This document shows, piece after piece, positions 2,481-23,705 of a DNA stretch of 25,396 bases. The first letter of the stretch is position 1, and every line of letters begins with the position of its first letter. The translations under genes and the position numbers were made by a program. The notes below the pieces were generated by a model that was not told the DNA's origin, searched no databases, and saw only the letters and a list, made by a program, of their open reading frames with translations. The stretch is from positions 1 to 25,396 of the IMG/VR virus record IMGVR_UViG_3300042275_000783; one strand, 5' to 3'. The stretch is from a virus.

Positions 2481-3868
2481 AAATGACGAAAGAGAAATTA
2501 ACTTTGAAAATGGGGATTAATGAAGGAGAAATACAACAGCAAGGCAATATTGTTAAGTTACCTCTTTCAACTCTGCTTGTTGAAGGACAGCATAACGGTA
2601 TTTTATTTTTGAGGACCGAAATTGAAAAAGCAAAAGTACCAGATGTTTTCCCGCTAACTCTTAATCATTCACGTAACGTTGAAGATGAAGTTGGCTGGTG
2701 GGAAAAGCCCTTAATTGTGGAAGGGCAAATTAAAGCAATACCTGTTATTAATCTTGAAACTGCAAAAGGAAGTGCAGCATTAGGTTATGTAAAGAATAGG
2801 CTGATGGCTGGGCTTGTTCCTGAAGTTTCTGTTGAAGTTTGGGCTGATATTGACACAGACGAAAATGGAAACAGAATTGCAAAGAATTTGGAGATTGACA
2901 AGGCTTCTTTAGTCGATAGAGGAGCATGTAATCCAGAAAAAGGCTGCGGTATTGGTTTAAAGGGGGAGGTTGATATGGGTGTAGTACCTAACCATCCATG
3001 GAGATATGGTAAAGATGCTGAAAGCTCTTGGAGTAAGCCCAGATTAAGCGATTTTACGGATAAAAGCTGGGATGAGCTTTCAGATAAAGAAAAAAGAAGT
3101 ATTGCTGGTCATTTTGCATGGGCTGAAAAGATGCCACCGGAGAATTTTGGACAGTTAAAACTGCCACATCATGATCCAAAAAGTCATGCAGTTGTTTGGA
3201 ACGGAGTTAGAGCCGCAATGGCAGCATTAATGGGAGCAAGGGGAGGCGTTAATATCCCAGGTGTTGATAAAAAGAAAGTGTATACTCATCTTGCAGCTCA
3301 TTACAAAGAATTTGATAAGCAGCCCCCGGAAGTAAAATTCGATGAAGAAACTGGAGAAATACTTGATTTTAAGTTTTTTGAGGGGGAGGAGGGGTTATTT
3401 ATGGAAGATGAGGTTATTGAAGAAAAAGAAGAGGTTAAAGAAGAGCAGTTGCAAGAAGAAAAGCCTATTGAAGAACAGGAAAAGCAAAAAGAAGAATTTG
3501 ATGCTTATGCTCTCTGCAGAGAGGAGCTTGAAGCAATAATTAAAGAAAAAGAAGCAAAGATTGAAGAGTTAGAAGCAAAAGTTGAAGCTCTTTCAAAAGA
3601 GCTTGAAGAAAAAGAAAAGCTGCTTAATTCTTACATTGAGAAAGAGAAAGCAGAAATTATTGCAGAATTACAAAAGCTAAACCCAGAATTTGATCCAAGC
3701 GGCAAGAGCCTTGAAGAGCTAAAAATCATACATGAGTTTGCGAAAGGTGTTAAATTAAGGTCTGGGCGTAAAAGTTTGGTTTTTTCGCCAAAAGAAGACG
3801 AAAAATTGGAATATGAGGAAATTTTGAGGAAAAAGGTTAAGGAGTTTATGAGGAAGGAGGTTGATTGA
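2477..3868 (+). CDS. Prohead protease fused to an internal conserved domain and a C-terminal coiled-coil scaffold
   Basis: Protease-like His (LTLNHSR) and Ser (EVSVEV) motifs plus SLVDRGAC. Middle domain LPHH...GARGGVNIP...HLAAHY. E/K-rich coiled-coil tail. Lies just before the capsid gene. Confidence 0.8.
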   Translation: MKMTKEKLTLKMGINEGEIQQQGNIVKLPLSTLLVEGQHNGILFLRTEIEKAKVPDVFPLTLNHSRNVEDEVGWWEKPLIVEGQIKAIPVINLETAKGSAALGYVKNRLMAGLVPEVSVEVWADIDTDENGNRIAKNLEIDKASLVDRGACNPEKGCGIGLKGEVDMGVVPNHPWRYGKDAESSWSKPRLSDFTDKSWDELSDKEKRSIAGHFAWAEKMPPENFGQLKLPHHDPKSHAVVWNGVRAAMAALMGARGGVNIPGVDKKKVYTHLAAHYKEFDKQPPEVKFDEETGEILDFKFFEGEEGLFMEDEVIEEKEEVKEEQLQEEKPIEEQEKQKEEFDAYALCREELEAIIKEKEAKIEELEAKVEALSKELEEKEKLLNSYIEKEKAEIIAELQKLNPEFDPSGKSLEELKIIHEFAKGVKLRSGRKSLVFSPKEDEKLEYEEILRKKVKEFMRKEVD

Positions 3869-12195: not shown

Positions 12196-12386
12196 AAAGG
12201 GTTAATGTTGATGATGTGGACGCCGCCATAGCTGGGATAACCTTAATAGCCATAATTTACACCATTTTGACAAAAGGGGCGGATGAGTCCGTTATAATCT
12301 ACGCTATGGGACTAATAGCGGCTTTAGCTAGGGGAAAAATCCGGGGCGGGGGGCGGGGGCGCCCGACTAAAATCACAAAGAGTTAA
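12192..12386 (+). CDS. Small two-TM membrane protein (holin-like) with a basic RGGGRGRP tail
   Basis: Two hydrophobic segments; start overlaps the previous stop. Confidence 0.5.
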   Translation: MKRVNVDDVDAAIAGITLIAIIYTILTKGADESVIIYAMGLIAALARGKIRGGGRGRPTKITKS

Positions 12387-12454
12387 AATAATGTTCGCGT
12401 TTTTGACCATAGCGAAAACAAAACACAACCCAGAAAGGAAAGTCCCAAATTTTT

Positions 12455-12850
12455 TTAATGTTTCTCAATGTTCATTAATGTTTTAACGTATTCTTTTGCC
12501 CCCTCTTCTCGAGGTCCAACGCTCTTACCAACTTCATTTTTACATTCAAACAGGGAATACACGAGTATTCTGTTTGACACTCTGGGGTCTGCCGAGAGAA
12601 GCTTGTACTCAAGCTCCTCCGACACGTCGAGAGCTTTCTCGGAGTCCACAAACTTCGCTATTATTACGATATGGGGGTTGATACCATCCTCCGGTGTTCC
12701 AGTAGTTATTTTTATCTCTTTAACTTCCTCCCGCTCCAACCATTGTGGAAGAGTTTCCCGAAGGTATCTTATTATCTCTCCCTTATAGGGTAAAGGAGTT
12801 TCAATGAGTGACTTAAAGTCTACTTTAAGCTTTTCTTTCTCCACCTTCAT
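12455..12850 (-). CDS. Hypothetical protein, weak nucleotidyltransferase-like alpha/beta pattern
   Basis: SD before ATG 12850. VKEIKITTGTPEDGINPHIVII resembles the MNT strand order but lacks the GS and DxD motifs. Confidence 0.45.
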   Translation of the reverse strand: MKVEKEKLKVDFKSLIETPLPYKGEIIRYLRETLPQWLEREEVKEIKITTGTPEDGINPHIVIIAKFVDSEKALDVSEELEYKLLSADPRVSNRILVYSLFECKNEVGKSVGPREEGAKEYVKTLMNIEKH

Positions 12851-13050
12851 CCTCCATCCCTCCATATTTTTTCCAATGCATTGTATGCACTTTCAAGCAT
12901 GTTGACGATCTCTTCAGTGTAATCCGCTATTGTCTCCCTGTCTACATTGGTATACCTTAGACCTGCAACAACCTTGTCAAGTCTCGCTATAGAACTTTCT
13001 ATCACTGACCTTGCGTAATCTATCTCCAATTCTCTATCTTTTTCCTCCAT
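12847..13050 (-). CDS. Small helical hypothetical protein
   Basis: SD GGAGGG before ATG 13050; amphipathic helices. Confidence 0.5.
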   Translation of the reverse strand: MEEKDRELEIDYARSVIESSIARLDKVVAGLRYTNVDRETIADYTEEIVNMLESAYNALEKIWRDGG

Positions 13051-13109
13051 CTTACACCCTCCATCTACCACCTTCCTCACCTCCTTAAGGTCTTGATATC
13101 CTCCAGTTT

Positions 13110-13544
13110 TCACCCCTCTATCGAGCCATTAAACACAATATACCCTTTGAACTTAAACCTGCTTTTCTTAACTACTGAACCATCACTCTCAATATGCTCT
13201 ACCACTTCCCTCTCTGTATGGCTGAAAACTGGCGTTGCGTAAAAGTACGGCCAAATCTCTGGAAAAATCCACATCAGCGCTGGAGAACCGACTGGCAAAT
13301 GTACATATGCATGAACTTTTTTCTGTTTGGCAAAATCAATAAGCTTTTCTACGATATTATATGCAAGCATTCCTAATTCGTCGATAGTATCTGGGCACTG
13401 TCTAACCTGACTAACAATATCTTCTGGCAAAACATCTTCTGCATTGTAAAACTCTTCAACTCCAAGCCTCTTTTTCGCTTCCTCCATTTGCTCATTCGTC
13501 AATCTATGGGACGTCAAGTTTACGAATACCTTCCTCATCTCCAT
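13110..13544 (-). CDS. csx20: Csx20-like stand-alone CARF-type ring nuclease homologue (candidate anti-type III CRISPR)
   Basis: N-terminal VFVNLTSHRLTNEQMEEAKKRLGVEEFY and C-terminal PVFSHTEREVVEHIESDGSVVKKSRFKFKGY match my recollection of the Csx20/Csx15/Csx16 pattern (SHxLTxEQ...TxRxxxE...F). Recognised by eye only. Confidence 0.65.
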   Translation of the reverse strand: MEMRKVFVNLTSHRLTNEQMEEAKKRLGVEEFYNAEDVLPEDIVSQVRQCPDTIDELGMLAYNIVEKLIDFAKQKKVHAYVHLPVGSPALMWIFPEIWPYFYATPVFSHTEREVVEHIESDGSVVKKSRFKFKGYIVFNGSIEG

Positions 13545-13568
13545 TCACCTCCATAGTTTTGTCAATAG

Positions 13569-13601
13569 ATATTATGTTTCTAATGTTTATAAACTTTTCG
13601 G
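13569..13601 (-). promoter_or_regulatory. Early promoter P1 (BRE CCGAAAAG + TATA TTTATAAA), 33-bp repeat copy A
   Basis: Minus strand ccgaaaagtttataaacattagaaacataatat, 31/33 identical to 14268-14300. Confidence 0.8.
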
Positions 13602-13615
13602 TTCATCAACACCCC

Positions 13616-14035
13616 CTAATCATCTGTTATTCCCAAATATTCTTTTGCCTCCTCTTCTGTGTTAGCAACCTGCATTGCCCTCTCAATAGCCTCATCCTCA
13701 TCCAACTCATCAACGTCATAACTCACATAATCAACATCGTAAAATTTACTGCCAGTATTGACAATAAACCTGCAATTAGGAATATCCGTATACCAGACAA
13801 CGCCTTTCGCTCCCCTCTCCATCAGCTTATTCAAAACAAACTCTTCAAACTCATAATCCTTCTCACCTAACTGTGCACCAACATTCCCACCAGCAAACTT
13901 CTGCCATGCCTCATCTAATACAGAATAAATATCATCAACATCTAATACACTAAATCCTAACTGTTCCATCTTTATTTCTGCCTGCCCTGCACCATTCCTA
14001 ACCTTCTTTACTTCAAAATACTCCGCCATCTCCAT
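13616..14035 (-). CDS. Highly acidic hypothetical protein (Acr/DNA-mimic candidate)
   Basis: About 33 D+E versus about 13 K+R in 139 aa; SD GGAGGTGA. Confidence 0.55.
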   Translation of the reverse strand: MEMAEYFEVKKVRNGAGQAEIKMEQLGFSVLDVDDIYSVLDEAWQKFAGGNVGAQLGEKDYEFEEFVLNKLMERGAKGVVWYTDIPNCRFIVNTGSKFYDVDYVSYDVDELDEDEAIERAMQVANTEEEAKEYLGITDD

Positions 14036-14042
14036 TCACCTC

Positions 14043-14240
14043 CTACAGATATACTCTCTCTACGTTGGGTGGGAATTGTGTACTTAGAAAGTCTTCAAGG
14101 GAATCAAATGCAAGTTCCTTATCCCCGTTGACTATGAGGATGTATAAGTCTGTCTCATCGTCATAATATAGGTCAAAGATTTGCCCTAACCAGTCAACAA
14201 CCCTGTATCCTCCGGAGAGTGCAACTATTGCGATCTTCAT
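14043..14240 (-). CDS. Small acidic beta-rich hypothetical protein
   Basis: First gene after promoter P2; SD GGAGGTG before ATG 14240. Confidence 0.55.
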   Translation of the reverse strand: MKIAIVALSGGYRVVDWLGQIFDLYYDDETDLYILIVNGDKELAFDSLEDFLSTQFPPNVERVYL

Positions 14241-14267
14241 CTCCAACACCTCCTTCTTCTTTAATAT

Positions 14268-14300
14268 ATATTATGTTCCTAATGTTTATAAGCTTTTCGG
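14268..14300 (-). promoter_or_regulatory. Early promoter P2 (BRE CCGAAAAG + TATA CTTATAAA), 33-bp repeat copy B
   Basis: Minus strand ccgaaaagcttataaacattaggaacataatat. Confidence 0.8.
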
Positions 14301-14327
14301 TCCACCGGGATATTACTTTTTCTTTTT

Positions 14328-14361
<34 letters not shown>

Positions 14362-14548
14362 TTAGGTTATCTTTAGGACCAAAGTACTTGAGTGTAGTTT
14401 TGTGAGGAAATTCTCTGAAGATTTTTACAAAGTTTGGAGATACATTTGAGTGAGTCATTAATCCAAATCTTAATCGAGGAAATTCAAAAAATACTCCCTT
14501 TAAGATTTCGAGACTTCCTGGTCGATCTACTACAAAAAAAGGAATCAT
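14362..14548 (-). pseudogene. 5' fragment of a tRNA-guanine-transglycosylase (TGT/DpdA)-like gene truncated at the IS end
   Basis: MIPFFVVDRPGSLEILKG...FGLMTHSNVSPNF resembles the N-terminus of a TGT-like family I recall beside C5 methyltransferases. The ORF runs into the IS hairpin and stops at 14327. Confidence 0.4.
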
Positions 14549-14554
14549 GTTATT

Positions 14555-14767
14555 TCACCTTCCCTCCACGCACTCGCTACTTCTTTCGCTTCTACCTTTC
14601 CTTGCAACTTTAATTGCCCTATCGTATTGGTAAAGGGCTTCATCAACTAATGCTTCAACATCATCATACCTAAAACGCCTTAAGCCTTCCTTTGCCCTTA
14701 ACAAGCATCTCTGCAACTTTCCTAACCTCTCAAAAAACTCTTTGTCCAATATAACATAATTAGTCAT
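14555..14767 (-). CDS. Small helical protein, paralogue of 20643-20867
   Basis: Ungapped alignment with about 15 identities over 52 aa. Confidence 0.55.
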   Translation of the reverse strand: MTNYVILDKEFFERLGKLQRCLLRAKEGLRRFRYDDVEALVDEALYQYDRAIKVARKGRSERSSECVEGR

Positions 14768-15003
14768 GCCTCTACATCCTCCTTAATCATCTCTGCATCT
14801 GCTGCATCAATCAATGCTTCAAGCCCTTGCTCATAACCCAAAACAAAAGCCCTTACCTCATACAAACTCCTTGCAACTAAAAGCAGCTTACTGTCTAAGT
14901 CCTTGATCTTGTAGATATATCTTGCGTCTCCTGTCCTTTGCCTTTCAAGGAAAAACCCATATTGCTGCAATTCTTTTTGTAATAATTTAAAAGTTAGGCT
15001 CAT
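14764..15003 (-). CDS. Hypothetical protein
   Basis: Overlapping start/stop junctions with neighbours (translational coupling). Confidence 0.55.
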   Translation of the reverse strand: MSLTFKLLQKELQQYGFFLERQRTGDARYIYKIKDLDSKLLLVARSLYEVRAFVLGYEQGLEALIDAADAEMIKEDVEA

Positions 15004-15238
15004 AGTACAATCCCTCCTTTAAAAATCGTTGATAAACTTTTGCTGCTGTTACAGCAACATTTCTTGCCTTTTTTGTTCCATGCATCCAATAATAACTCCT
15101 TGCTGCTTCAGGTGTTATCTCCTCTGCTTGTATGCCCATCTCCTTTTCAAGCTGCTTCAATTTTCTCATGATCTGGTTTATTGTTGATGTTCTGTAGTTC
15201 AATGATAAATATAAGTAAAAATAGCCTTCATGCTTCAT
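14987..15238 (-). CDS. Stand-alone tyrosine-recombinase core-binding (SAM-like) domain protein
   Basis: YFYLYLSLNYRTSTINQIMRKLK...EEITPEAARSYY...RNVAVTAAKVYQRFL follows the integrase N-terminal helical pattern; there is no catalytic domain. Confidence 0.55.
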   Translation of the reverse strand: MKHEGYFYLYLSLNYRTSTINQIMRKLKQLEKEMGIQAEEITPEAARSYYWMHGTKKARNVAVTAAKVYQRFLKEGLYYEPNF

Positions 15239-15465
15239 ATTACCCAGACCTCCATGCCAACAATTACACCATCAACAAGCCTTATTTTTCCAATTAGCTT
15301 CCCAGTTGTTAGGTCATGCCACAAAATAAAACTGCCGTTCTGCAAGTCGTAAGTGACCACTCTTACAGGACAGCCAACAAAAATAGTTGTAAATGGTGTC
15401 TCTTTGTTTACTGCTTCATTAACCAACTCTTCAACAGCATTCAACAAAGATGTTTTAACCTCCAT
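15235..15465 (-). CDS. Hypothetical protein (likely start ATG 15465)
   Basis: SD GGAGGTCTGGGG precedes MEVKTSLL; the longer ORF-track version runs through the CRISPR repeat. Confidence 0.55.
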   Translation of the reverse strand: MEVKTSLLNAVEELVNEAVNKETPFTTIFVGCPVRVVTYDLQNGSFILWHDLTTGKLIGKIRLVDGVIVGMEVWVI

Positions 15466-15512
15466 CTTCCCCAGACCTCCAATTTTTTTACCTGTCGTCA
15501 TTGGGACAGGCG

Positions 15513-15542
15513 ACCTCAATTCTTTCAAAGTCTTATTGGAAC
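15513..15542 (-). CRISPR. Solitary CRISPR repeat unit (not an array), Thermococcales type, 3' end altered
   Basis: GTTCCAATAAGACTTTGAAAGAATTGAGGT versus the P. furiosus repeat GTTCCAATAAGACTAAAATAGAATTGAAAG: nt 1-14 and 20-27 identical. Intergenic; no second repeat seen. Confidence 0.8.
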
Positions 15543-15562
15543 ATTGAAAAAAATGAAAAGGA

Positions 15563-16081
15563 TTACTCAAGCTTGTTAAGAACTTCCTTCAATGTTTGAA
15601 TTAATTCCTCTTTCTTCTTTTCTTTTGCAAGTGTAATTGCTTGTTTTAGTTCTTCAATTACTTCATCCATCTCATCTTTGTCATTGCTAAAATACTGATT
15701 TACTATTTTTGCAATTTCTGTTACCGCATTTGCCATTTCTGCTTGAGTGTCATAATAATCACTAAACAACTCTTCAATATTGCCTTCTTCATCAATTTTG
15801 TATAAGATTATACCTGTCCTTGGGTGTTTTGATGAACCCCATGCAGCTGTTGCAACAATAAATGCTGGTACTTCAATAACAGCATCAATGTATGCTGGGT
15901 CTCCTCTTACCTTCAAAAATCTACCTGTGAATGCATAGCCATTTAATTTTGATGTATCAACTTTGTCTTCAAGCAATTTTGCCCATACCTTTTTCCTTGT
16001 CTTCATGGGTCTCCCAAGTGAAACATCTCCCTTCCCTATTGCCACTTTACCATCTTCAAGAATTACTACCATTTTCACCAT
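15563..16081 (-). CDS. Hypothetical viral protein (KVWAK...DTSKLNGYAFTGRFL motif) with C-terminal coiled coil
   Basis: Likely start ATG 16081 (MVKMVV), coupled to the upstream small ORF. Confidence 0.65.
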   Translation of the reverse strand: MVKMVVILEDGKVAIGKGDVSLGRPMKTRKKVWAKLLEDKVDTSKLNGYAFTGRFLKVRGDPAYIDAVIEVPAFIVATAAWGSSKHPRTGIILYKIDEEGNIEELFSDYYDTQAEMANAVTEIAKIVNQYFSNDKDEMDEVIEELKQAITLAKEKKKEELIQTLKEVLNKLE

Positions 16082-16218
16082 CTCCTTTTCTCCCATTTTT
16101 CCTCTTCTTCCTTCATCATCCTTGCAAATTCAGCCAACTCAAAATCCCCAGCTCTTCTCCCAAGCTCTTCAAGTTGCCTCCAATCTTCCACCGTTCTTCT
16201 TTCGTTTCCAAACATCAT
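16075..16218 (-). CDS. 47-aa charged helical protein (not in the ORF track)
   Basis: MMFGNERRTVEDWRQLEELGRRAGDFELAEFARMMKEEEEKWEKRRW; first ORF after promoter P3, with an SD-like GGGGGTCTGGG. Confidence 0.55.
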   Translation of the reverse strand: MMFGNERRTVEDWRQLEELGRRAGDFELAEFARMMKEEEEKWEKRRW

Positions 16219-16242
16219 TTTCCCAGACCCCCGCTTAAGTTC

Positions 16243-16373
16243 TTCAATACTATATACACCTTTGGACTATATAAACTTTTCGGTGTTTTTAAAGCAAAGT
16301 TTTAGAGGTATTTAAATAACAATAGTGGAAAAGTTTGAGGTTGTTCTACAAATTATCAAGTCTTCTTAATTAC
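16243..16373 (-). repeat. 131-bp direct repeat copy 1, containing early promoter P3
   Basis: Near-identical to 19336-19463 (one short indel region and two substitutions); contains ccgaaaagtttatatag on the minus strand. Confidence 0.95.
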
Positions 16374-17969: not shown

Positions 17970-18731
17970 CTAAAATGAGGTTATAAACTCAATAAGGGTT
18001 CCTTGCCGCCCTTCTTTTTTAAAGCGCTCTTCAAGCTCTGCAAGGGTGTAATCATCCCTGAATTGCTTACCGTGCTCTCTAATACTCATTTCTTCAAGCT
18101 TTTTTGCCGTGTTAAAGAGCCGGGGAAAATGCCAATATAATGCCCTCCATTCCCCTATACGCTGGTAAGGGCACAAATAGCAACCAAGCCGCTCAAAATA
18201 ATCATAGAGTTGGTTGTAAAGTCCATGCTTTTTTATGAGTTGCAAGGCCTCTTTTTCAGTAATTCCCTCCTCTATCAGAGGGGCATGTAAATGCACAATC
18301 TTAACGCCAAACTTACGTGCATACGTCTTTGATTTCCGTTTAGCGTTCTTAAAGCGCTCCTCCTCATCCGCTGCATATCCAAGGTATAAATCAAGATATC
18401 TAATGTTTTGCTCCTTCAACCATTCATAAAAGGGCTCTTTCTTAAGTGTCCTGCAGCACCACCGCCCCGCTGGGCTAAACGGAACACCACGCTTTTTCAC
18501 TTGGAGACCAAACGGTTCCTTAGGGTGTATTTCAGTTATGCCAATTCCAAACGTTTTTTGAACCCACTCATTTAGTTCCTTGCGAACATAAAGCACTTGT
18601 TGAGGGAACTCTATTCCTGTATTCAAAAAAACAATAAAATCGGGTTTAAAGCCTCTCTGAGCAAGAACTATCAGCATCGCCGTGCTGTCTTTCCCTCCGC
18701 TTATGCTAACCACTTTTGTAAATTTACTCAT
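17970..18731 (-). CDS. PAPS-reductase / PP-loop family protein
   Basis: VSISGGKDSTAM PP-loop, FLNTGIEFP, RWCCRTLK and RLGCYLCP Cys motifs. Confidence 0.9.
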   Translation of the reverse strand: MSKFTKVVSISGGKDSTAMLIVLAQRGFKPDFIVFLNTGIEFPQQVLYVRKELNEWVQKTFGIGITEIHPKEPFGLQVKKRGVPFSPAGRWCCRTLKKEPFYEWLKEQNIRYLDLYLGYAADEEERFKNAKRKSKTYARKFGVKIVHLHAPLIEEGITEKEALQLIKKHGLYNQLYDYFERLGCYLCPYQRIGEWRALYWHFPRLFNTAKKLEEMSIREHGKQFRDDYTLAELEERFKKEGRQGTLIEFITSF

Positions 18732-19313: not shown

Positions 19314-19335
19314 CTCATTCACCTCCACAGTTTTG

Positions 19336-19463
19336 TTCAATACTATATACACCTTTGGACTATATAAACTTTTTGCTTTTAAAGCAAAGTTTTAGAGGTA
19401 TTTAAATAACAATAGTGGAAAAGTTCGAGGTTATTCTACAAATTATCAAGTCTTCTTAATTAC
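19336..19463 (-). repeat. 128-bp direct repeat copy 2, containing early promoter P4
   Basis: Matches 16243-16373; contains gcaaaaagtttatatag on the minus strand. Confidence 0.95.
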
Positions 19464-20867: not shown

Positions 20868-21752
20868 CTACAAAGAGTTTACAACTTGCATGTAAAGCCT
20901 ATAAGCTGAGGTTGGTAAACGTTTTCCAAACTCTTCAGCAACTTCTTTTGCAATAAGGGGCATTACTATTTTTGGATCAATAAACTCTTCATAAGAAAGC
21001 CTTAACCTAACCTTTTCAATTGCCTGTAAAATCTCCTCTTCAGTTGCATATGTTTTTTTATCTGTTTTCTCTTTTTTGAGCTTATTTTTGTAAATTTGGC
21101 TTTCATGAGTTGGAAAACCATAATGAATTGGCTTTATTTTGCCCCTAAACAAAATGCTGTTATCTTCAGCTAAAGCTTTAATAACAAAACCTTCATAATC
21201 TCTTAACCATGCCAAATTGGCAAGATTTTTGAGCAGTTCTTGATTAACTTCATCAATGTAAAGGTATTCTTGAATTTCACCTGTTATAAATGAATTTGTT
21301 TCAAGTACATGAACTGGGTAAAATTTGCCGATTTTGTCCTCCCAAAATTCAAAAATAACAAAATTTGCTGGTTGAAATTGTGAGGTATAAGGTGCTTTAA
21401 GCTCTTTTGCTATTAATTCACCGGCAATATAATCTTTTTCATCCCAGTTGTCATAAAAGAATTTGATGAAATTTATTAGGGCTGGGTTATTGTTAAGGGC
21501 TTTTTTAAATAATTCTGCAAACCTGTTTTCAGCATTCTTGTTTCTTGTTAGCAAATATATTTTGCCTTGATACTTAACTAAACGTAAATTAGTACCATCA
21601 TACTTTTTTTCTATTAACACCCAACTTACTCTGCTTTTTTGCCTGTTAAATTCATGCAAGAACTGTGTTGGATTGCTTATTTTTGGAAAGGGCTTAACTG
21701 CTGGAGGTATGCATTCATTAGAAAAAATTAAACCATCAAATTCAAACTCCAT
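20868..21752 (-). CDS. ATP-dependent RNA ligase, Rnl2-like
   Basis: Motif I EKKYDGTN, III AGELI, IIIa FVIFEF, IV EGFVIK, V RGKIK. The C-terminal YATEEEIL...VMPLIAKEVAEE resembles the Rnl2 C-domain. Likely start ATG 21752. Confidence 0.8.
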   Translation of the reverse strand: MEFEFDGLIFSNECIPPAVKPFPKISNPTQFLHEFNRQKSRVSWVLIEKKYDGTNLRLVKYQGKIYLLTRNKNAENRFAELFKKALNNNPALINFIKFFYDNWDEKDYIAGELIAKELKAPYTSQFQPANFVIFEFWEDKIGKFYPVHVLETNSFITGEIQEYLYIDEVNQELLKNLANLAWLRDYEGFVIKALAEDNSILFRGKIKPIHYGFPTHESQIYKNKLKKEKTDKKTYATEEEILQAIEKVRLRLSYEEFIDPKIVMPLIAKEVAEEFGKRLPTSAYRLYMQVVNSL

Positions 21753-21780
21753 CACCCAACCCCCCTCAGAATGAGAACCA

Positions 21781-21987
21781 CTACCATTCTTCATCACCTC
21801 CCCAAGCTCTCCATCTCAAAAACTCATTATACTTCCTTTTTGCCTTTCTAACTTGAGCTAAACTGTGTTTTGATCTGGGGTTGGTCATTCTTAAACCTGC
21901 TAAAATATAAAGAACAAAGGAAGGCTTATACCTCTTTTCAAGCCATTCTTTGAACTCTTCAAGCTCTTCAGGCTTAATTTCAGTCAT
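21781..21987 (-). CDS. Small protein resembling a shortened integrase core-binding domain
   Basis: EEFKEWLEKRYKPS...KAKRKYNEFL shares terminal helices with 14987-15238. Confidence 0.45.
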   Translation of the reverse strand: MTEIKPEELEEFKEWLEKRYKPSFVLYILAGLRMTNPRSKHSLAQVRKAKRKYNEFLRWRAWGGDEEW

Positions 21988-22354
21988 CTTCCATGACCTC
22001 ATCTGGGTCTTCATCTGGGTCAATCAATGTGTAATACTTTAACCCCGCTTTTGTTCTTTTCTTAAGCACTCTCGCTAAAACAGGCTCTCCATCTTCAAAA
22101 GCACCTGCATCTTTTAGTTTTCTAACTTGGTCCATGATGACCTCTGAAGATGTGTTCCAGCAATAAGGCGTTTTCTCTACGTCATCCGCAAAATAAAAAT
22201 AGATGCTTACATAAGGCTTTTTTTCTCCTTTTCTAAAGTGTACTTGCTCTACTGCGATAACCTCCCCTATCACGGCTGGGCTTTTTACCACCTGTCTGCT
22301 GTCGTCATAATGCTGCTCTTTTTCCAAAAAATCACTTATCTTTTTTACCAACAC
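21980..22354 (-). CDS. Single-stranded DNA-binding protein (OB-fold, phi29 gp5-like) with acidic tail
   Basis: NTSSEVIMDQV...GEPVLARVLKKRTKAGLKYYTL pattern and C-terminal DPDEDPDEVMEDD. Confidence 0.6.
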   Translation of the reverse strand: MLVKKISDFLEKEQHYDDSRQVVKSPAVIGEVIAVEQVHFRKGEKKPYVSIYFYFADDVEKTPYCWNTSSEVIMDQVRKLKDAGAFEDGEPVLARVLKKRTKAGLKYYTLIDPDEDPDEVMEDD

Positions 22355-22359
22355 CAGGA

Positions 22360-22460
22360 CCTCCTTAAGTGTTCATCAATGCATATCTCTGTGAATGAAG
22401 TTTTTAAATTTTGTGTTTTTGATTCACTTTGTTAAATAGCAAAAAATATATAAGGTGATT
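22360..22460. promoter_or_regulatory. Divergent promoter region between the minus-strand early block and the plus-strand block
   Basis: Plus strand gcaaaaaa-tatataag and minus strand cacaaaa-tttaaaaa BRE/TATA pairs. Confidence 0.55.
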
Positions 22461-22490
22461 TTTGTATTACATTATTTGAGGTGTTGTTAT

Positions 22491-23705
22491 TTGTCGTTAT
22501 CCCCAAGCCAAAGTTTGATATATACCCTTTTGCTTGAAAGTGGTGGGAGACTTAAGCGGCAGGAGTTGCAGCAGCAAACACCTTTTAAACAAAATGCTTT
22601 TAGGGCAAGATTAAGTGAATTGAAGAAAAAAGGGCTTATTGACTTCAATAAAGAAGAAGTGTGGGTTGTTAAAGAAATACAGCATGAACAAGAGAATAAT
22701 GAACAAGAAGAGCTTAAAAACAAGCTCAAAAGTCTGCTTGATGGTGGGATTGTACTTGAAAGAAAAAGAGAAGGTAACGTTACAGCAACAATAATAATAA
22801 GCGATACGCACTTTGGAGATGAAAACGTTATGATAGAAACTTATCAATCAACAGTAAACAACTTGATCTGGAAATTAAAGCAAATATCCCAACAAAAGCC
22901 AATAGATAATATAATTGTTGTTTTGAATGGAGATGTTGTTGCAGGTAGGCACATTTTTTACATGCAAGAAGCCCAAAACATCTTTAATAAGGGCAATATC
23001 CAGGTATTATACGCAACTGCTTTTATTTTAGACTTACACCACCAGTTAAGCGAAATTACACCAGAGATACAATACTTTGTGATCAAAGGTAATCACGATA
23101 ACAATAGAGGAGATAATTATGCATGGGGTTTAGCAGATAAGTTAAGAAGCTTAGGGCTTGATGCTTATTATAGTGGACACCAGCTTATAATGAACTTGGG
23201 TAATGACGAAAAAGAGCATTGGGCTTTAATTGAGCATGGATACGGCGGAAGTGATTATTACCCAATTAGCTATGACTTCTTAAGGAACACCCAAAAAAAG
23301 CTGCTGTGGTTGAATAGGCATCAAAGGTTAAAAGGGAGAGCAGAAATTGAAAGAGTAATAGTTGGTCATTCACATTGGCTTGTTACAAACATAAGGCAGG
23401 ATACGTATTGGGCAATTGATGTAAGTGGTGGTTTTCAAAGAAATGAAAGAGTTGAGCTGGGCAAAAACCAGAGACCAGCTGGGTTCATCTTGTACGTTTT
23501 TGATCCAGAGAAAGATGGGCTTACAATATATGACTGGAAAGATGGCTTAAGGCTTTATGAAATTACTCCAGATGAAGATGTGATGTTAAAAGAGCTTACA
23601 GATCCAGCCCTTGAACTCAAAAATAGAATGTTAGCTCCACAAAAGCTGATGCAGTTGTATAATTATCTCGTTGAAAATGGCTTGATTAAGAAGGAAATAA
23701 AATGA
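22491..23705 (+). CDS. wHTH-calcineurin-like metallophosphoesterase (likely TTG start 22491)
   Basis: SDTHFG, NGDVV, KGNHD, IEHG and GHSH motifs; N-terminal wHTH (ARLSELKKKGLID). Confidence 0.85.
   Translation: MSLSPSQSLIYTLLLESGGRLKRQELQQQTPFKQNAFRARLSELKKKGLIDFNKEEVWVVKEIQHEQENNEQEELKNKLKSLLDGGIVLERKREGNVTATIIISDTHFGDENVMIETYQSTVNNLIWKLKQISQQKPIDNIIVVLNGDVVAGRHIFYMQEAQNIFNKGNIQVLYATAFILDLHHQLSEITPEIQYFVIKGNHDNNRGDNYAWGLADKLRSLGLDAYYSGHQLIMNLGNDEKEHWALIEHGYGGSDYYPISYDFLRNTQKKLLWLNRHQRLKGRAEIERVIVGHSHWLVTNIRQDTYWAIDVSGGFQRNERVELGKNQRPAGFILYVFDPEKDGLTIYDWKDGLRLYEITPDEDVMLKELTDPALELKNRMLAPQKLMQLYNYLVENGLIKKEIK

Follow-up and report, generated by a model that had tools for sequence, protein, structure and literature searches.

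A solitary CRISPR repeat in a mobile leader cassette and a Csx20-like gene in the accessory block of a probable Thermococcaceae head-tailed virus

Positions 12,455 to 16,373 of the IMG/VR virus record IMGVR_UViG_3300042275_000783 hold a dense run of small genes on the minus strand, among which lie a solitary CRISPR repeat and a gene for a Csx20-like protein of 144 aa (Table 1). The window analysed here is the complete record, a linear sequence of 25,396 bp with a CheckV completeness estimate of 33%. Its plus strand, from position 1 to ~12,386, encodes a portal, a MuF-like protein, an HK97-type capsid protein, a tail tube and a tape-measure protein, and the window therefore belongs to a head-tailed virus. 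Minus-strand genes run from ~19,463 down to 12,455, the GC skew switching sign with gene direction, and within this stretch a C5 DNA methyltransferase gene and a gene of the phosphoadenylyl sulphate (PAPS) reductase family (17970–18731) lie immediately upstream of the block. An earlier reading of the same DNA, hereafter the original prediction, had described about 12 small open reading frames (ORFs) in 3.9 kb as an anti-defence island, and 12 minus-strand ORFs (47, 177, 76, 83, 79, 70, 73, 68, 139, 144, 88 and 136 aa) are indeed found, occupying 12455–16218. We consider 12455–16373 most likely to be a variable accessory-gene block of a Thermococcaceae head-tailed virus, read leftward.

The core of the repeat fits the pattern GTTCCAATAAGACT-N5-AGAATTGA with 0 mismatches over all 22 specified positions and has no other match anywhere in 25.4 kb, whether at up to three mismatches (0 expected) or at up to five; the solitary repeat of the original prediction is thus present and unique in the window. 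It is identical to the closest host array variant at 26 of 30 positions, and the Rfam model CRISPR-DR6 scores it at 30.5 bits (E 0.0087), under the gathering score of 39. The final three bases of the handle (15513–15515) read GGT as against AAG, AAC or AAT in host repeats, and a stricter repeat pattern with a GAAAG end gave no match at up to three mismatches. The exact 27-mer was absent from the viral contig and genome contig collections. It is a single repeat, not an array, and scans of the block and of the window's other large ORFs found no cas families. The repeat lies 20 nt past a stop codon and 77 nt ahead of the next ATG, and the nearest motif resembling a transcription factor B recognition element (BRE) with TATA box, that of candidate promoter P1, is 728 nt upstream. 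A second role of the repeat as a TATA box was considered and rejected because the N5 bases vary as they do in host repeats (CTAGG, CTAAG and others).

To place the virus with regard to its host, we scanned one genome per prokaryote species with the pattern GTTCCAATAAGACT-N5-AGAATTGA. The 48 loci recovered were exclusively from Thermococcus, Thermococcaceae or Thermococci metagenome-assembled genomes (MAGs) and for the most part were CRISPR arrays, whose repeats terminate in GAATTGAAA(G/C/T) and vary chiefly in the N5 bases. One of the 362 spacers from these loci fits window positions 13555–13590 at 36/37 (E 4e-14), a target that covers promoter P3 and the beginning of the Csx20-like transcript; it also fits the duplicate of this sequence at P2 over 25 of 27 aligned bases. 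The spacer comes from a Thermococcaceae MAG (G001) and carries plus-strand sequence, and its CRISPR RNA (crRNA) could therefore pair with minus-strand transcripts. A Cas10/Cmr2 gene is present in the same MAG, and the Cas10/Cmr2 model has matches in 37 of 99 Thermococcales genomes, 20 of them above its cut-off. These matches support a Thermococcaceae host that appears to direct CRISPR at this virus, and agree with the Thermococcales host with type III systems that had been proposed at the outset. Near-identical window DNA was also seen in public runs, compared as contigs, from many studies of wastewater, subsurface, groundwater, oil-field and crude-oil metagenomes, and the virus seems to inhabit deep hot oil or water reservoirs, not marine vents alone. 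An RNA library contained short contigs on parts of the block, including 15459–15565, from which transcript ends, strand and level are unreadable and in which DNA carry-over is possible.

The 144-aa protein belongs, as judged from profile matches, to the MJ1673/Csx20 family. It aligns to the NCBIfam profile CAS_Csx20 (NF040559) over positions 2–121 of 124 with E 1.5e-11 and 44.7 bits; the Csx20-like label of the original prediction is borne out, at a score under the curated cut-off of 70 that leaves the protein outside the equivalog. A word-based search returned three relatives only, and homologues 96% and 49% identical to the protein carry the precomputed Pfam family PF27247 'MJ1673', an assignment that reaches the 144-aa protein through these homologues. 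A profile search of 1.8 billion representatives gave 400 relatives at E ≤ 0.001. Among 61 aligned family members 55 match CAS_Csx20 and 0 reach its cut-off, and the family is therefore best placed as a sister group of the curated Csx20 equivalog. Residues H13, L15, Q19, P84, G86, S87, P88, F107, S108, H109, R112, G122, K126 and F130 are near-invariant in this alignment, and the 144-aa protein retains every one of them. Modelled as a homodimer, it scored 0.86 against 0.00 for the best control, with at least 94% of contacts agreeing among three runs and a partner pLDDT of at least 89; in a calibration of this score, 20 of 30 proteins solved as pairs and 1 of 23 solved as single chains attained 0.86. 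The predicted interface consists of residues 83–96 and 105–112, which hold the conserved motifs, and would resemble a CARF-type dimer with a shared ligand site. Foldseek of the model against the PDB gave no match at E ≤ 0.001; fold matches of the protein include SAVED domains of effectors of cyclic-oligonucleotide-based antiphage signalling systems (CBASS).

The family occurs in one of the 99 Thermococcales genomes, on a 3.6-kb mobile-element contig (L006), and is absent from the other 98, and a viral ring nuclease for cyclic tetra-adenylate (cA4) is therefore plausible. Sampled homologues elsewhere sit among small genes of no known family, outside cas loci, and the Csx20-like gene comes first behind a motif of BRE/TATA type in the window as well as on contigs L078 and L084. 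One representative of Csx20 degrades cA4 in vitro, and Csx20 is present in five phage genomes (bioRxiv 10.1101/2024.09.24.614671). The ring nuclease of the original prediction thus gains from the activity of the type member and from the confinement of the family, within the Thermococcales, to a mobile element; cA4 cleavage by the 144-aa protein itself is best called plausible. We regard a viral ring nuclease, or a sponge, acting against type III signalling as the most likely role of the protein, with moderate confidence.

The repeat is part of a longer leader element, hereafter the cassette, that recurs on other mobile elements. In gene sense, the cassette runs from ~20 nt of T/C-rich sequence after a stop codon through the 27-nt repeat core, a G, a GC-rich stem-loop, (C)GAUGA(C), an A-run and GGAGGTG to the ATG, for a length of ~95 nt; the window copy has AAUGA in place of (C)GAUGA(C). 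It is always in sense, and its repeat starts 68–79 nt from the ATG. The mobile-element contig L006 carries two repeat copies that end, like the window's, in GAATTGAG instead of GAATTGAAAG, and one of its cassettes is the leader directly ahead of the Csx20-like gene, so that a survey for co-occurrence of Csx20-like genes and solitary repeats, as had been suggested, does find the pair together. A scan with CAATAAGACT-N5-AGAATTGAG added one IMG/VR contig and 12 metagenome contigs, 10 of the 12 with the same arrangement, and a tolerant search returned 19 cassette copies on 13 contigs, 13 of these copies being distinct. Cassettes can stand in tandem, one per small gene, as on L053 (three in 1,042 bp) and L058 (three ~365 bp apart). 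The genes behind them are mutually unrelated, and an identical leader precedes the Csx20-like gene on L006 and a gene for a 207-aa protein on L062.

The contigs that bear cassettes share almost no proteins with the window. One of them (L050) is from a relative of the window virus, with tape-measure, RNA ligase and phosphoesterase genes, and another (L054) is an element that encodes a primase-helicase. A gene for an RNA ligase and a divergent metallophosphoesterase with a winged-helix domain, at 20868–23705 in the window, are conserved in L050 (10115–12938). In 99 Thermococcales genomes the cassette pattern was found once, on the L006 mobile-element contig. The phage collection gave no match to the cassette, and the plasmids matched only its repeat part, in the mini-array of pTN3. 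No cassette was found near the sampled Csx20-like genes of L063, L064, L065, L078, L079, L080 and L084, nor near the sampled homologues of the 139-aa protein (L081–L083). A contig with two cassettes (L059) carries an extra solitary repeat at 2580–2606 (+) that ends in GAATCGAAAG and has neither a kink-turn element nor a nearby start codon, possibly a different kind of solitary repeat.

Cas6 of Pyrococcus furiosus binds repeat positions 2–9, cuts after position 22 and leaves an 8-nt handle, AUUGAAAG. In all cassettes positions 1–27 are kept and positions 28–30 are changed, which indicates that the parts relevant to Cas6 are retained and that the end of the handle is rebuilt as a structure starting one base past the cut site. 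The bases just after the UUGA of the repeat pair with those just before (G/A)AUGA. Across the 13 distinct cassettes the first stem pair is G-C in 12 and the second is formed in all 13 (as G-C, C-G, U-A or U-G); pairing holds in 83.9% of cells over five pairs, as against 60% in shuffles, with a covariation score of 0.52 as against 0.18 (0/500 shuffles reach either value), and all slid registers are worse. UUGA followed by (G/A)AU-GA is found in 13/13. The order of UUGA, stem-loop, 3-nt bulge and GA is that of a kink-turn, with UUGA at the place of a D box and CGAUGA at that of a C box, and a clean kink-turn fold is obtained for 7 of the 13. In the other six, the window's included, 2–4 closing pairs are possible and a perfect 4–7-bp hairpin, its sequence different from copy to copy, holds NC(G/A)AUGAN in a loop of 8 nt; in the window this is a 6-bp hairpin, CCTGTC/GACAGG (15491–15510), with an 8-nt loop. 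The minimum free energy of the fold is unusual in the window copy (z −3.7), as against z −0.4 to −1.1 in three other cassettes, and thermodynamics by themselves thus do not support a structure. The compensatory changes in the stem point to selection on RNA structure, and under either fold the (G/A)AUGA motif is conserved and its flanking stems covary. The cassette is thus a conserved element with a covarying stem, and a part for L7Ae in it can be inferred from the kink-turn layout.

Based on these observations, we propose that the window contains an accessory block with two parts that are aimed at, or make use of, the CRISPR-Cas system of the host, an explanation that we give a probability of about 0.5 as a whole. 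The 144-aa protein, as a CARF-like homodimer, would bind and cut (or sequester) cA4 and thereby blunt type III signalling. At the cassette, whose sites host Cas6 probably recognises, the enzyme would bind and cut the viral transcript, and the altered, structured handle would keep the cut product out of effector complexes. Two outcomes, possibly both, may follow: Cas6 is titrated, or each downstream gene receives a separate processed mRNA. Several points weigh against this proposal. The N5 variant of the window repeat, TTGAA, is absent from every host array sampled, and a run of seven T just upstream of the repeat could terminate transcription before the repeat is reached. The kink-turn stem of the window copy has 2–3 pairs, and the hairpin with AAUGA in its loop is the more stable prediction. 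The cassette copies share ancestry and are hence non-independent. Blocking crRNA maturation would be of little help to a lytic virus, as mature complexes pre-exist, and the neighbouring genes have no likeness to known anti-CRISPR (Acr) or Acr-associated (Aca) proteins in Pfam, NCBIfam and PHROGs scans.

What Cas6 would do at the cassette can be read in more than one way. The original prediction saw an RNA decoy. Under this reading, repeat RNA would soak up Cas6 and perhaps handle-binding subunits so that crRNA production or complex assembly fails, and more copies would give a higher dose. RNA anti-CRISPRs (Racrs) of this type are solitary viral repeats that bind Cas6f and Cas7f and often lie beside acr genes (PMC10651486); the cassette likewise keeps the 27 nt relevant to Cas6 in all copies, is multi-copy, and lies beside or ahead of a Csx20-like gene. 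A decoy requires neither a fixed spacing to the Shine-Dalgarno (SD) sequence and ATG nor a layout of one per gene, however, and no promoter lies within 250 nt of the window repeat. The 5' handle end is always altered (GAG.. as against GAAAG in the host), so that effector loading, part of the RacrIF1 mechanism, is unlikely, and crRNA-protein complexes formed before infection would remain active throughout a lytic cycle. We consider the decoy rather unlikely. The conserved cassette in the 5' untranslated region (5' UTR), one per gene and with the handle end replaced, is no less compatible with a site at which Cas6 cuts mRNA. Here Cas6 would serve the virus as an mRNA-processing enzyme, cutting between cistrons to yield monocistronic mRNAs that begin with AUUGA in an L7Ae-bound kink-turn; such a cut site would explain both the geometry and the altered handle, since the host is not armed with virus-derived guides. 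The cassettes fill entire intergenic gaps, one per gene and in sense, each with its A-run and SD; the leader shared by L006 and L062 is identical before unrelated genes; a covarying stem adjoining the cleavage site takes the place of the handle end; and kink-turns and K-loops bound by L7Ae are common in Pyrococcus RNAs (PMC3124441). Against this, we found no precedent in the literature consulted, a virus that relies on a defence enzyme of its host takes a risk, only one cassette stands among the 12 genes of the block, and the kink-turn is clean in just over half of the distinct cassettes. We hold mRNA processing by Cas6 only tentatively, as somewhat unlikely, and the same applies to its further consequences, namely that Cas6 caps the upstream 3' ends and that expression of the accessory genes depends on active host CRISPR-Cas. 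A fuller form, operon punctuation, is doubtful: a repeat and kink-turn before each accessory gene would let Cas6 cut the transcript into stable monocistronic mRNAs with L7Ae-capped 5' ends, the handle would exclude effector loading, and counter-defence genes, the Csx20-like one for instance, would be expressed in proportion to the CRISPR activity of the host.

The cassette might instead be a recombination boundary only, a shared junction for gene swapping in which the repeat is a relic of an array and Cas6 has no part. L006 and L062 carry one leader before different genes, their sequences parting at the start codon, the contigs concerned have almost no other proteins in common with the window, and public contigs show gain and loss in the block at the level of cassettes. 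A relic would decay, however, whereas the 22 specified positions are kept in nearly every copy and N5 varies as in host arrays, and the compensatory stem changes speak for selection on RNA; we judge this reading improbable. An alternative for the other part of the block is that the Csx20-like protein is a CARF-like nucleotide sensor or sponge of another role, for instance for CBASS-type signals or in self-regulation of the virus, and not an anti-CRISPR. Its score under the Csx20 cut-off, which no aligned family member reaches, and the SAVED domains among its fold matches would fit such a role, as would the sister family Csx15, which showed no nuclease activity and may be a sponge. The conserved Ser/His/Arg/Lys cluster at the modelled dimer interface, the type III systems of candidate hosts, the absence of the family from host chromosomes and the established use of ring nucleases by viruses all argue the other way, and a role outside CRISPR is unlikely.

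Table 1. Features of the accessory block, in window coordinates.
Feature	Position	Strand	Remarks
Solitary CRISPR repeat core, 27 nt	15516..15542	-	Thermococcaceae repeat family; Cas6 binding and cleavage positions kept (predicted)
T/C-rich tract, conserved 5' part of cassette	15543..15562	-	between stop of 177-aa ORF and repeat
Kink-turn-like element (predicted)	15491..15519	-	UUGA of repeat 15516-15519, stem, AAUGA 15498-15502
Csx20/MJ1673-family CARF-like protein, 144 aa	13110..13544	-	candidate viral cA4 ring nuclease; first gene after P3
Promoter P1 region (candidate)	16240..16373	-	motif CCGAAAAGTTTATA at 16270-16283; ~134 nt duplicated at 19333-19463 (P4, outside block)
Promoter P2 (candidate)	14263..14304	-	motif 14287-14300; 42-nt duplicate of P3
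Promoter P3 (candidate)	13554..13605	-	motif 13588-13601; 13555-13590 is protospacer for Thermococcaceae MAG spacer
ORF, 47 aa	16075..16218	-	first gene after P1
ORF, 177 aa	15563..16096	-	no family or fold lead
ORF, 76 aa	15235..15465	-	directly behind cassette; A-run and GGAGG ahead of ATG at 15465
ORF, 83 aa	14987..15238	-	basic, isoelectric point (pI) 9.5
ORF, 79 aa	14764..15003	-	homologue in related virus contig L050
ORF, 70 aa	14555..14767	-	basic; homologue in L050
Truncated gene fragment, 73 aa	14327..14548	-	first 55 residues 78% identical to N-terminus of 320-aa Thermococcales protein
Hairpin element, ~45 nt (TGACCTCCTCCCCGCCCTAAAGGGCGAGGCTT and A-run)	14313..14360	-	multicopy in Thermococcales chromosomes; ends gene fragment
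ORF, 68 aa	14043..14249	-	pI 4.05
ORF, 139 aa	13616..14035	-	pI 4.13, net charge about -20; homologues in Thermococcales-type mobile elements; no fold match
ORF, 88 aa	12847..13113	-	mostly missing from variant contig joining 12369 to 13112
ORF, 136 aa	12455..12865	-	last gene of block; missing from variant contig joining 12369 to 13112

The block contains three exact copies of the motif CCGAAAAG(T/C)TTATA. The form CCGAAAAGYTTATA, which we take to be a purine-rich BRE followed by a TATA box and thus a near-consensus putative archaeal promoter, occurs exactly at P1, P2 and P3, every copy on the minus strand. At up to two mismatches it has four matches as against 0.65 expected, a number that 0 of 100 shuffles reach; the fourth, with two changes, lies outside the block at 19363–19376 on the minus strand. 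Each motif stands ~45–50 nt ahead of a start codon with a GGAGG-type ribosome-binding site. The three copies of one promoter that had been described are therefore present as motifs, but they form two duplication families and not one unit, P2 and P3 sharing 42 nt at 90% and P1 and the outside copy ~134 nt at 92–97%. The terms 'driven by', 'strong' and 'early', as applied to these promoters, are inferences and not observations. The ~134-nt direct repeats (16240–16373 and 19333–19463), each with a promoter motif, flank the methyltransferase/PAPS-reductase operon, and recombination between them could delete or duplicate this cassette of genes. Public contigs join across 12369/13112, 13972/14255 and 19142/19266, one variant lacking 12370–13111 and with it the 136-aa ORF and most of the 88-aa ORF, and such gaps and rearrangements fit a fast-changing accessory region.

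The remaining ORFs of the block offered few leads. Pfam had nothing at E ≤ 0.1 for ten island proteins, the products of all ORFs but those of 88 and 136 aa and hence with the Csx20-like one among them. PHROGs likewise gave no match for ten island proteins, Csx20 was the sole NCBIfam match among the island proteins, and the ESM Atlas had no usable lead for the 139-aa and 177-aa proteins. Pfam and NCBIfam gave no DNA-binding family in the block, such as the helix-turn-helix or ribbon-helix-helix type of Aca regulators, and the two basic ORFs of 83 and 70 aa are without a family. The sole homologue of the 76-aa ORF is a near-copy, 97% identical. The acidic small proteins of the original prediction come down to two strongly acidic products, of 68 and 139 aa; most others are only mildly acidic and three are basic. 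The 73-aa ORF was considered as an Acr candidate and rejected, being the remnant of a 320-aa chromosomal protein ended by the ~45-nt hairpin element. Guilt by association, on which the neighbouring ORFs had been put forward as Acr candidates, is consequently weak, because these neighbours have no recognisable family or fold and one is a gene fragment.

The ~45-nt hairpin element is found in 85 of the 99 Thermococcales genomes, mostly in many copies, and its metagenome depth far exceeds that of the virus. It also occurs on L068–L072, and over 38 nt is 97% identical to Sulfolobus virus SMV1. A weak plus-strand Rfam match to HgcC and the 38-nt match to SMV1 were rejected as features of the island, since both are explained by this element, which is repeated across Thermococcales genomes. 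On a Thermococcales-type element with pT26-2-like genes (L081, 4684–8675), which carries type IV Csf1, a repeat-associated mysterious protein (RAMP), Csf3 and a PAPS-reductase-family gene, a homologue of the 139-aa protein follows directly after the Csf and PAPS-reductase genes; the window's own PAPS-reductase gene lies one operon upstream of the block.

We know of no anti-CRISPR described for the Thermococcales. A 2026 survey of their viruses, with a description of head-tailed families, goes no further than a guess that regions of small ORFs hold anti-defence genes (PMC12934983). The block offers two candidates in genetically tractable hosts, Thermococcus kodakarensis and Pyrococcus furiosus. 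One is the Csx20-family protein, which would give archaeal viruses a second kind of ring nuclease besides AcrIII-1. The other, and the more interesting, is the repeat-derived RNA cassette, which is conserved, mobile, structured and placed gene by gene; it points either to an RNA anti-CRISPR fitted to a stand-alone Cas6 and to repeats that lack structure, or to a virus that borrows Cas6 for its own messages, and in the second case the target of a CRISPR enzyme would have put that enzyme to a new use. Searches for the cassette might moreover lead to accessory and anti-defence genes of Thermococcales viruses that are not in culture. The combination of decoy, ring nuclease and candidate Acr proteins, of which the original prediction knew no description, is in principle no novelty: published work already covers RNA anti-CRISPRs made of solitary repeats, the pairing of such repeats with protein Acrs, ring nucleases of viruses, and phage-borne Csx20. 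What is new here is the leader cassette of repeat and kink-turn, placed gene by gene across several mobile elements.

Among known systems, the mini-CRISPR array of plasmid pTN3 of Thermococcus nautili resembles the cassette in bringing host-type repeats onto a Thermococcales mobile element. This array is unannotated (L075 1501–1600; KF527230.1 16359–16458) and consists of a TATA-like box, a repeat GTTGCAATAAGACTCTAAGAGAATTGAAAC, a 37-nt spacer and a degenerate second repeat. With its promoter, its two repeats and its one spacer, pTN3 could yield a crRNA, whereas the cassette carries a single repeat with an altered handle and lacks a spacer-repeat unit. The cassette is also similar to the L7Ae-bound kink-turns and K-loops of box C/D small RNAs (PMC3124441), in that a Watson-Crick stem lies between a UUGA resembling a D box and a (C)GAUGA resembling a C box, the second GA being preceded by a 3-nt bulge. 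However, its UUGA is part of a CRISPR repeat beside a Cas6 site, it has no guide region and no terminal C/D pair, and its non-canonical stem is weak.

The role proposed for the 144-aa protein, that of a virus-encoded enzyme that destroys cA4 and disarms type III signalling, is the role of AcrIII-1/Crn2 (DUF1874), whose family and fold are unrelated; the ten island proteins scanned have no Pfam match to DUF1874. With Csx20 (NF040559; bioRxiv 10.1101/2024.09.24.614671) and PF27247 the protein shares a length of ~140 aa, a full-length profile alignment, the GSP and SH(S/T)xR motifs and a predicted symmetric homodimer. It differs in scoring as a sister group and not as the equivalog; its gene belongs to a head-tailed virus of archaea and has no type III locus in its vicinity, and sampled homologues lie in blocks of small genes. 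The window repeat is like a Racr (PMC10651486) in being a single host-type repeat on a virus, outside an array and without cas genes, near a candidate protein anti-CRISPR, with a matching repeat in the host family. In contrast to a Racr, it lacks a separate promoter and is embedded in an operon, where it forms a 5'-UTR cassette with an SD sequence. Related elements carry it in tandem, one copy per gene, and its last handle bases give way to a covarying stem and (G/A)AUGA in a kink-turn-like arrangement. The host side differs as well, in that the Thermococcales-type repeat is unstructured and a stand-alone Cas6 is shared among several effector types in Pyrococcus furiosus.

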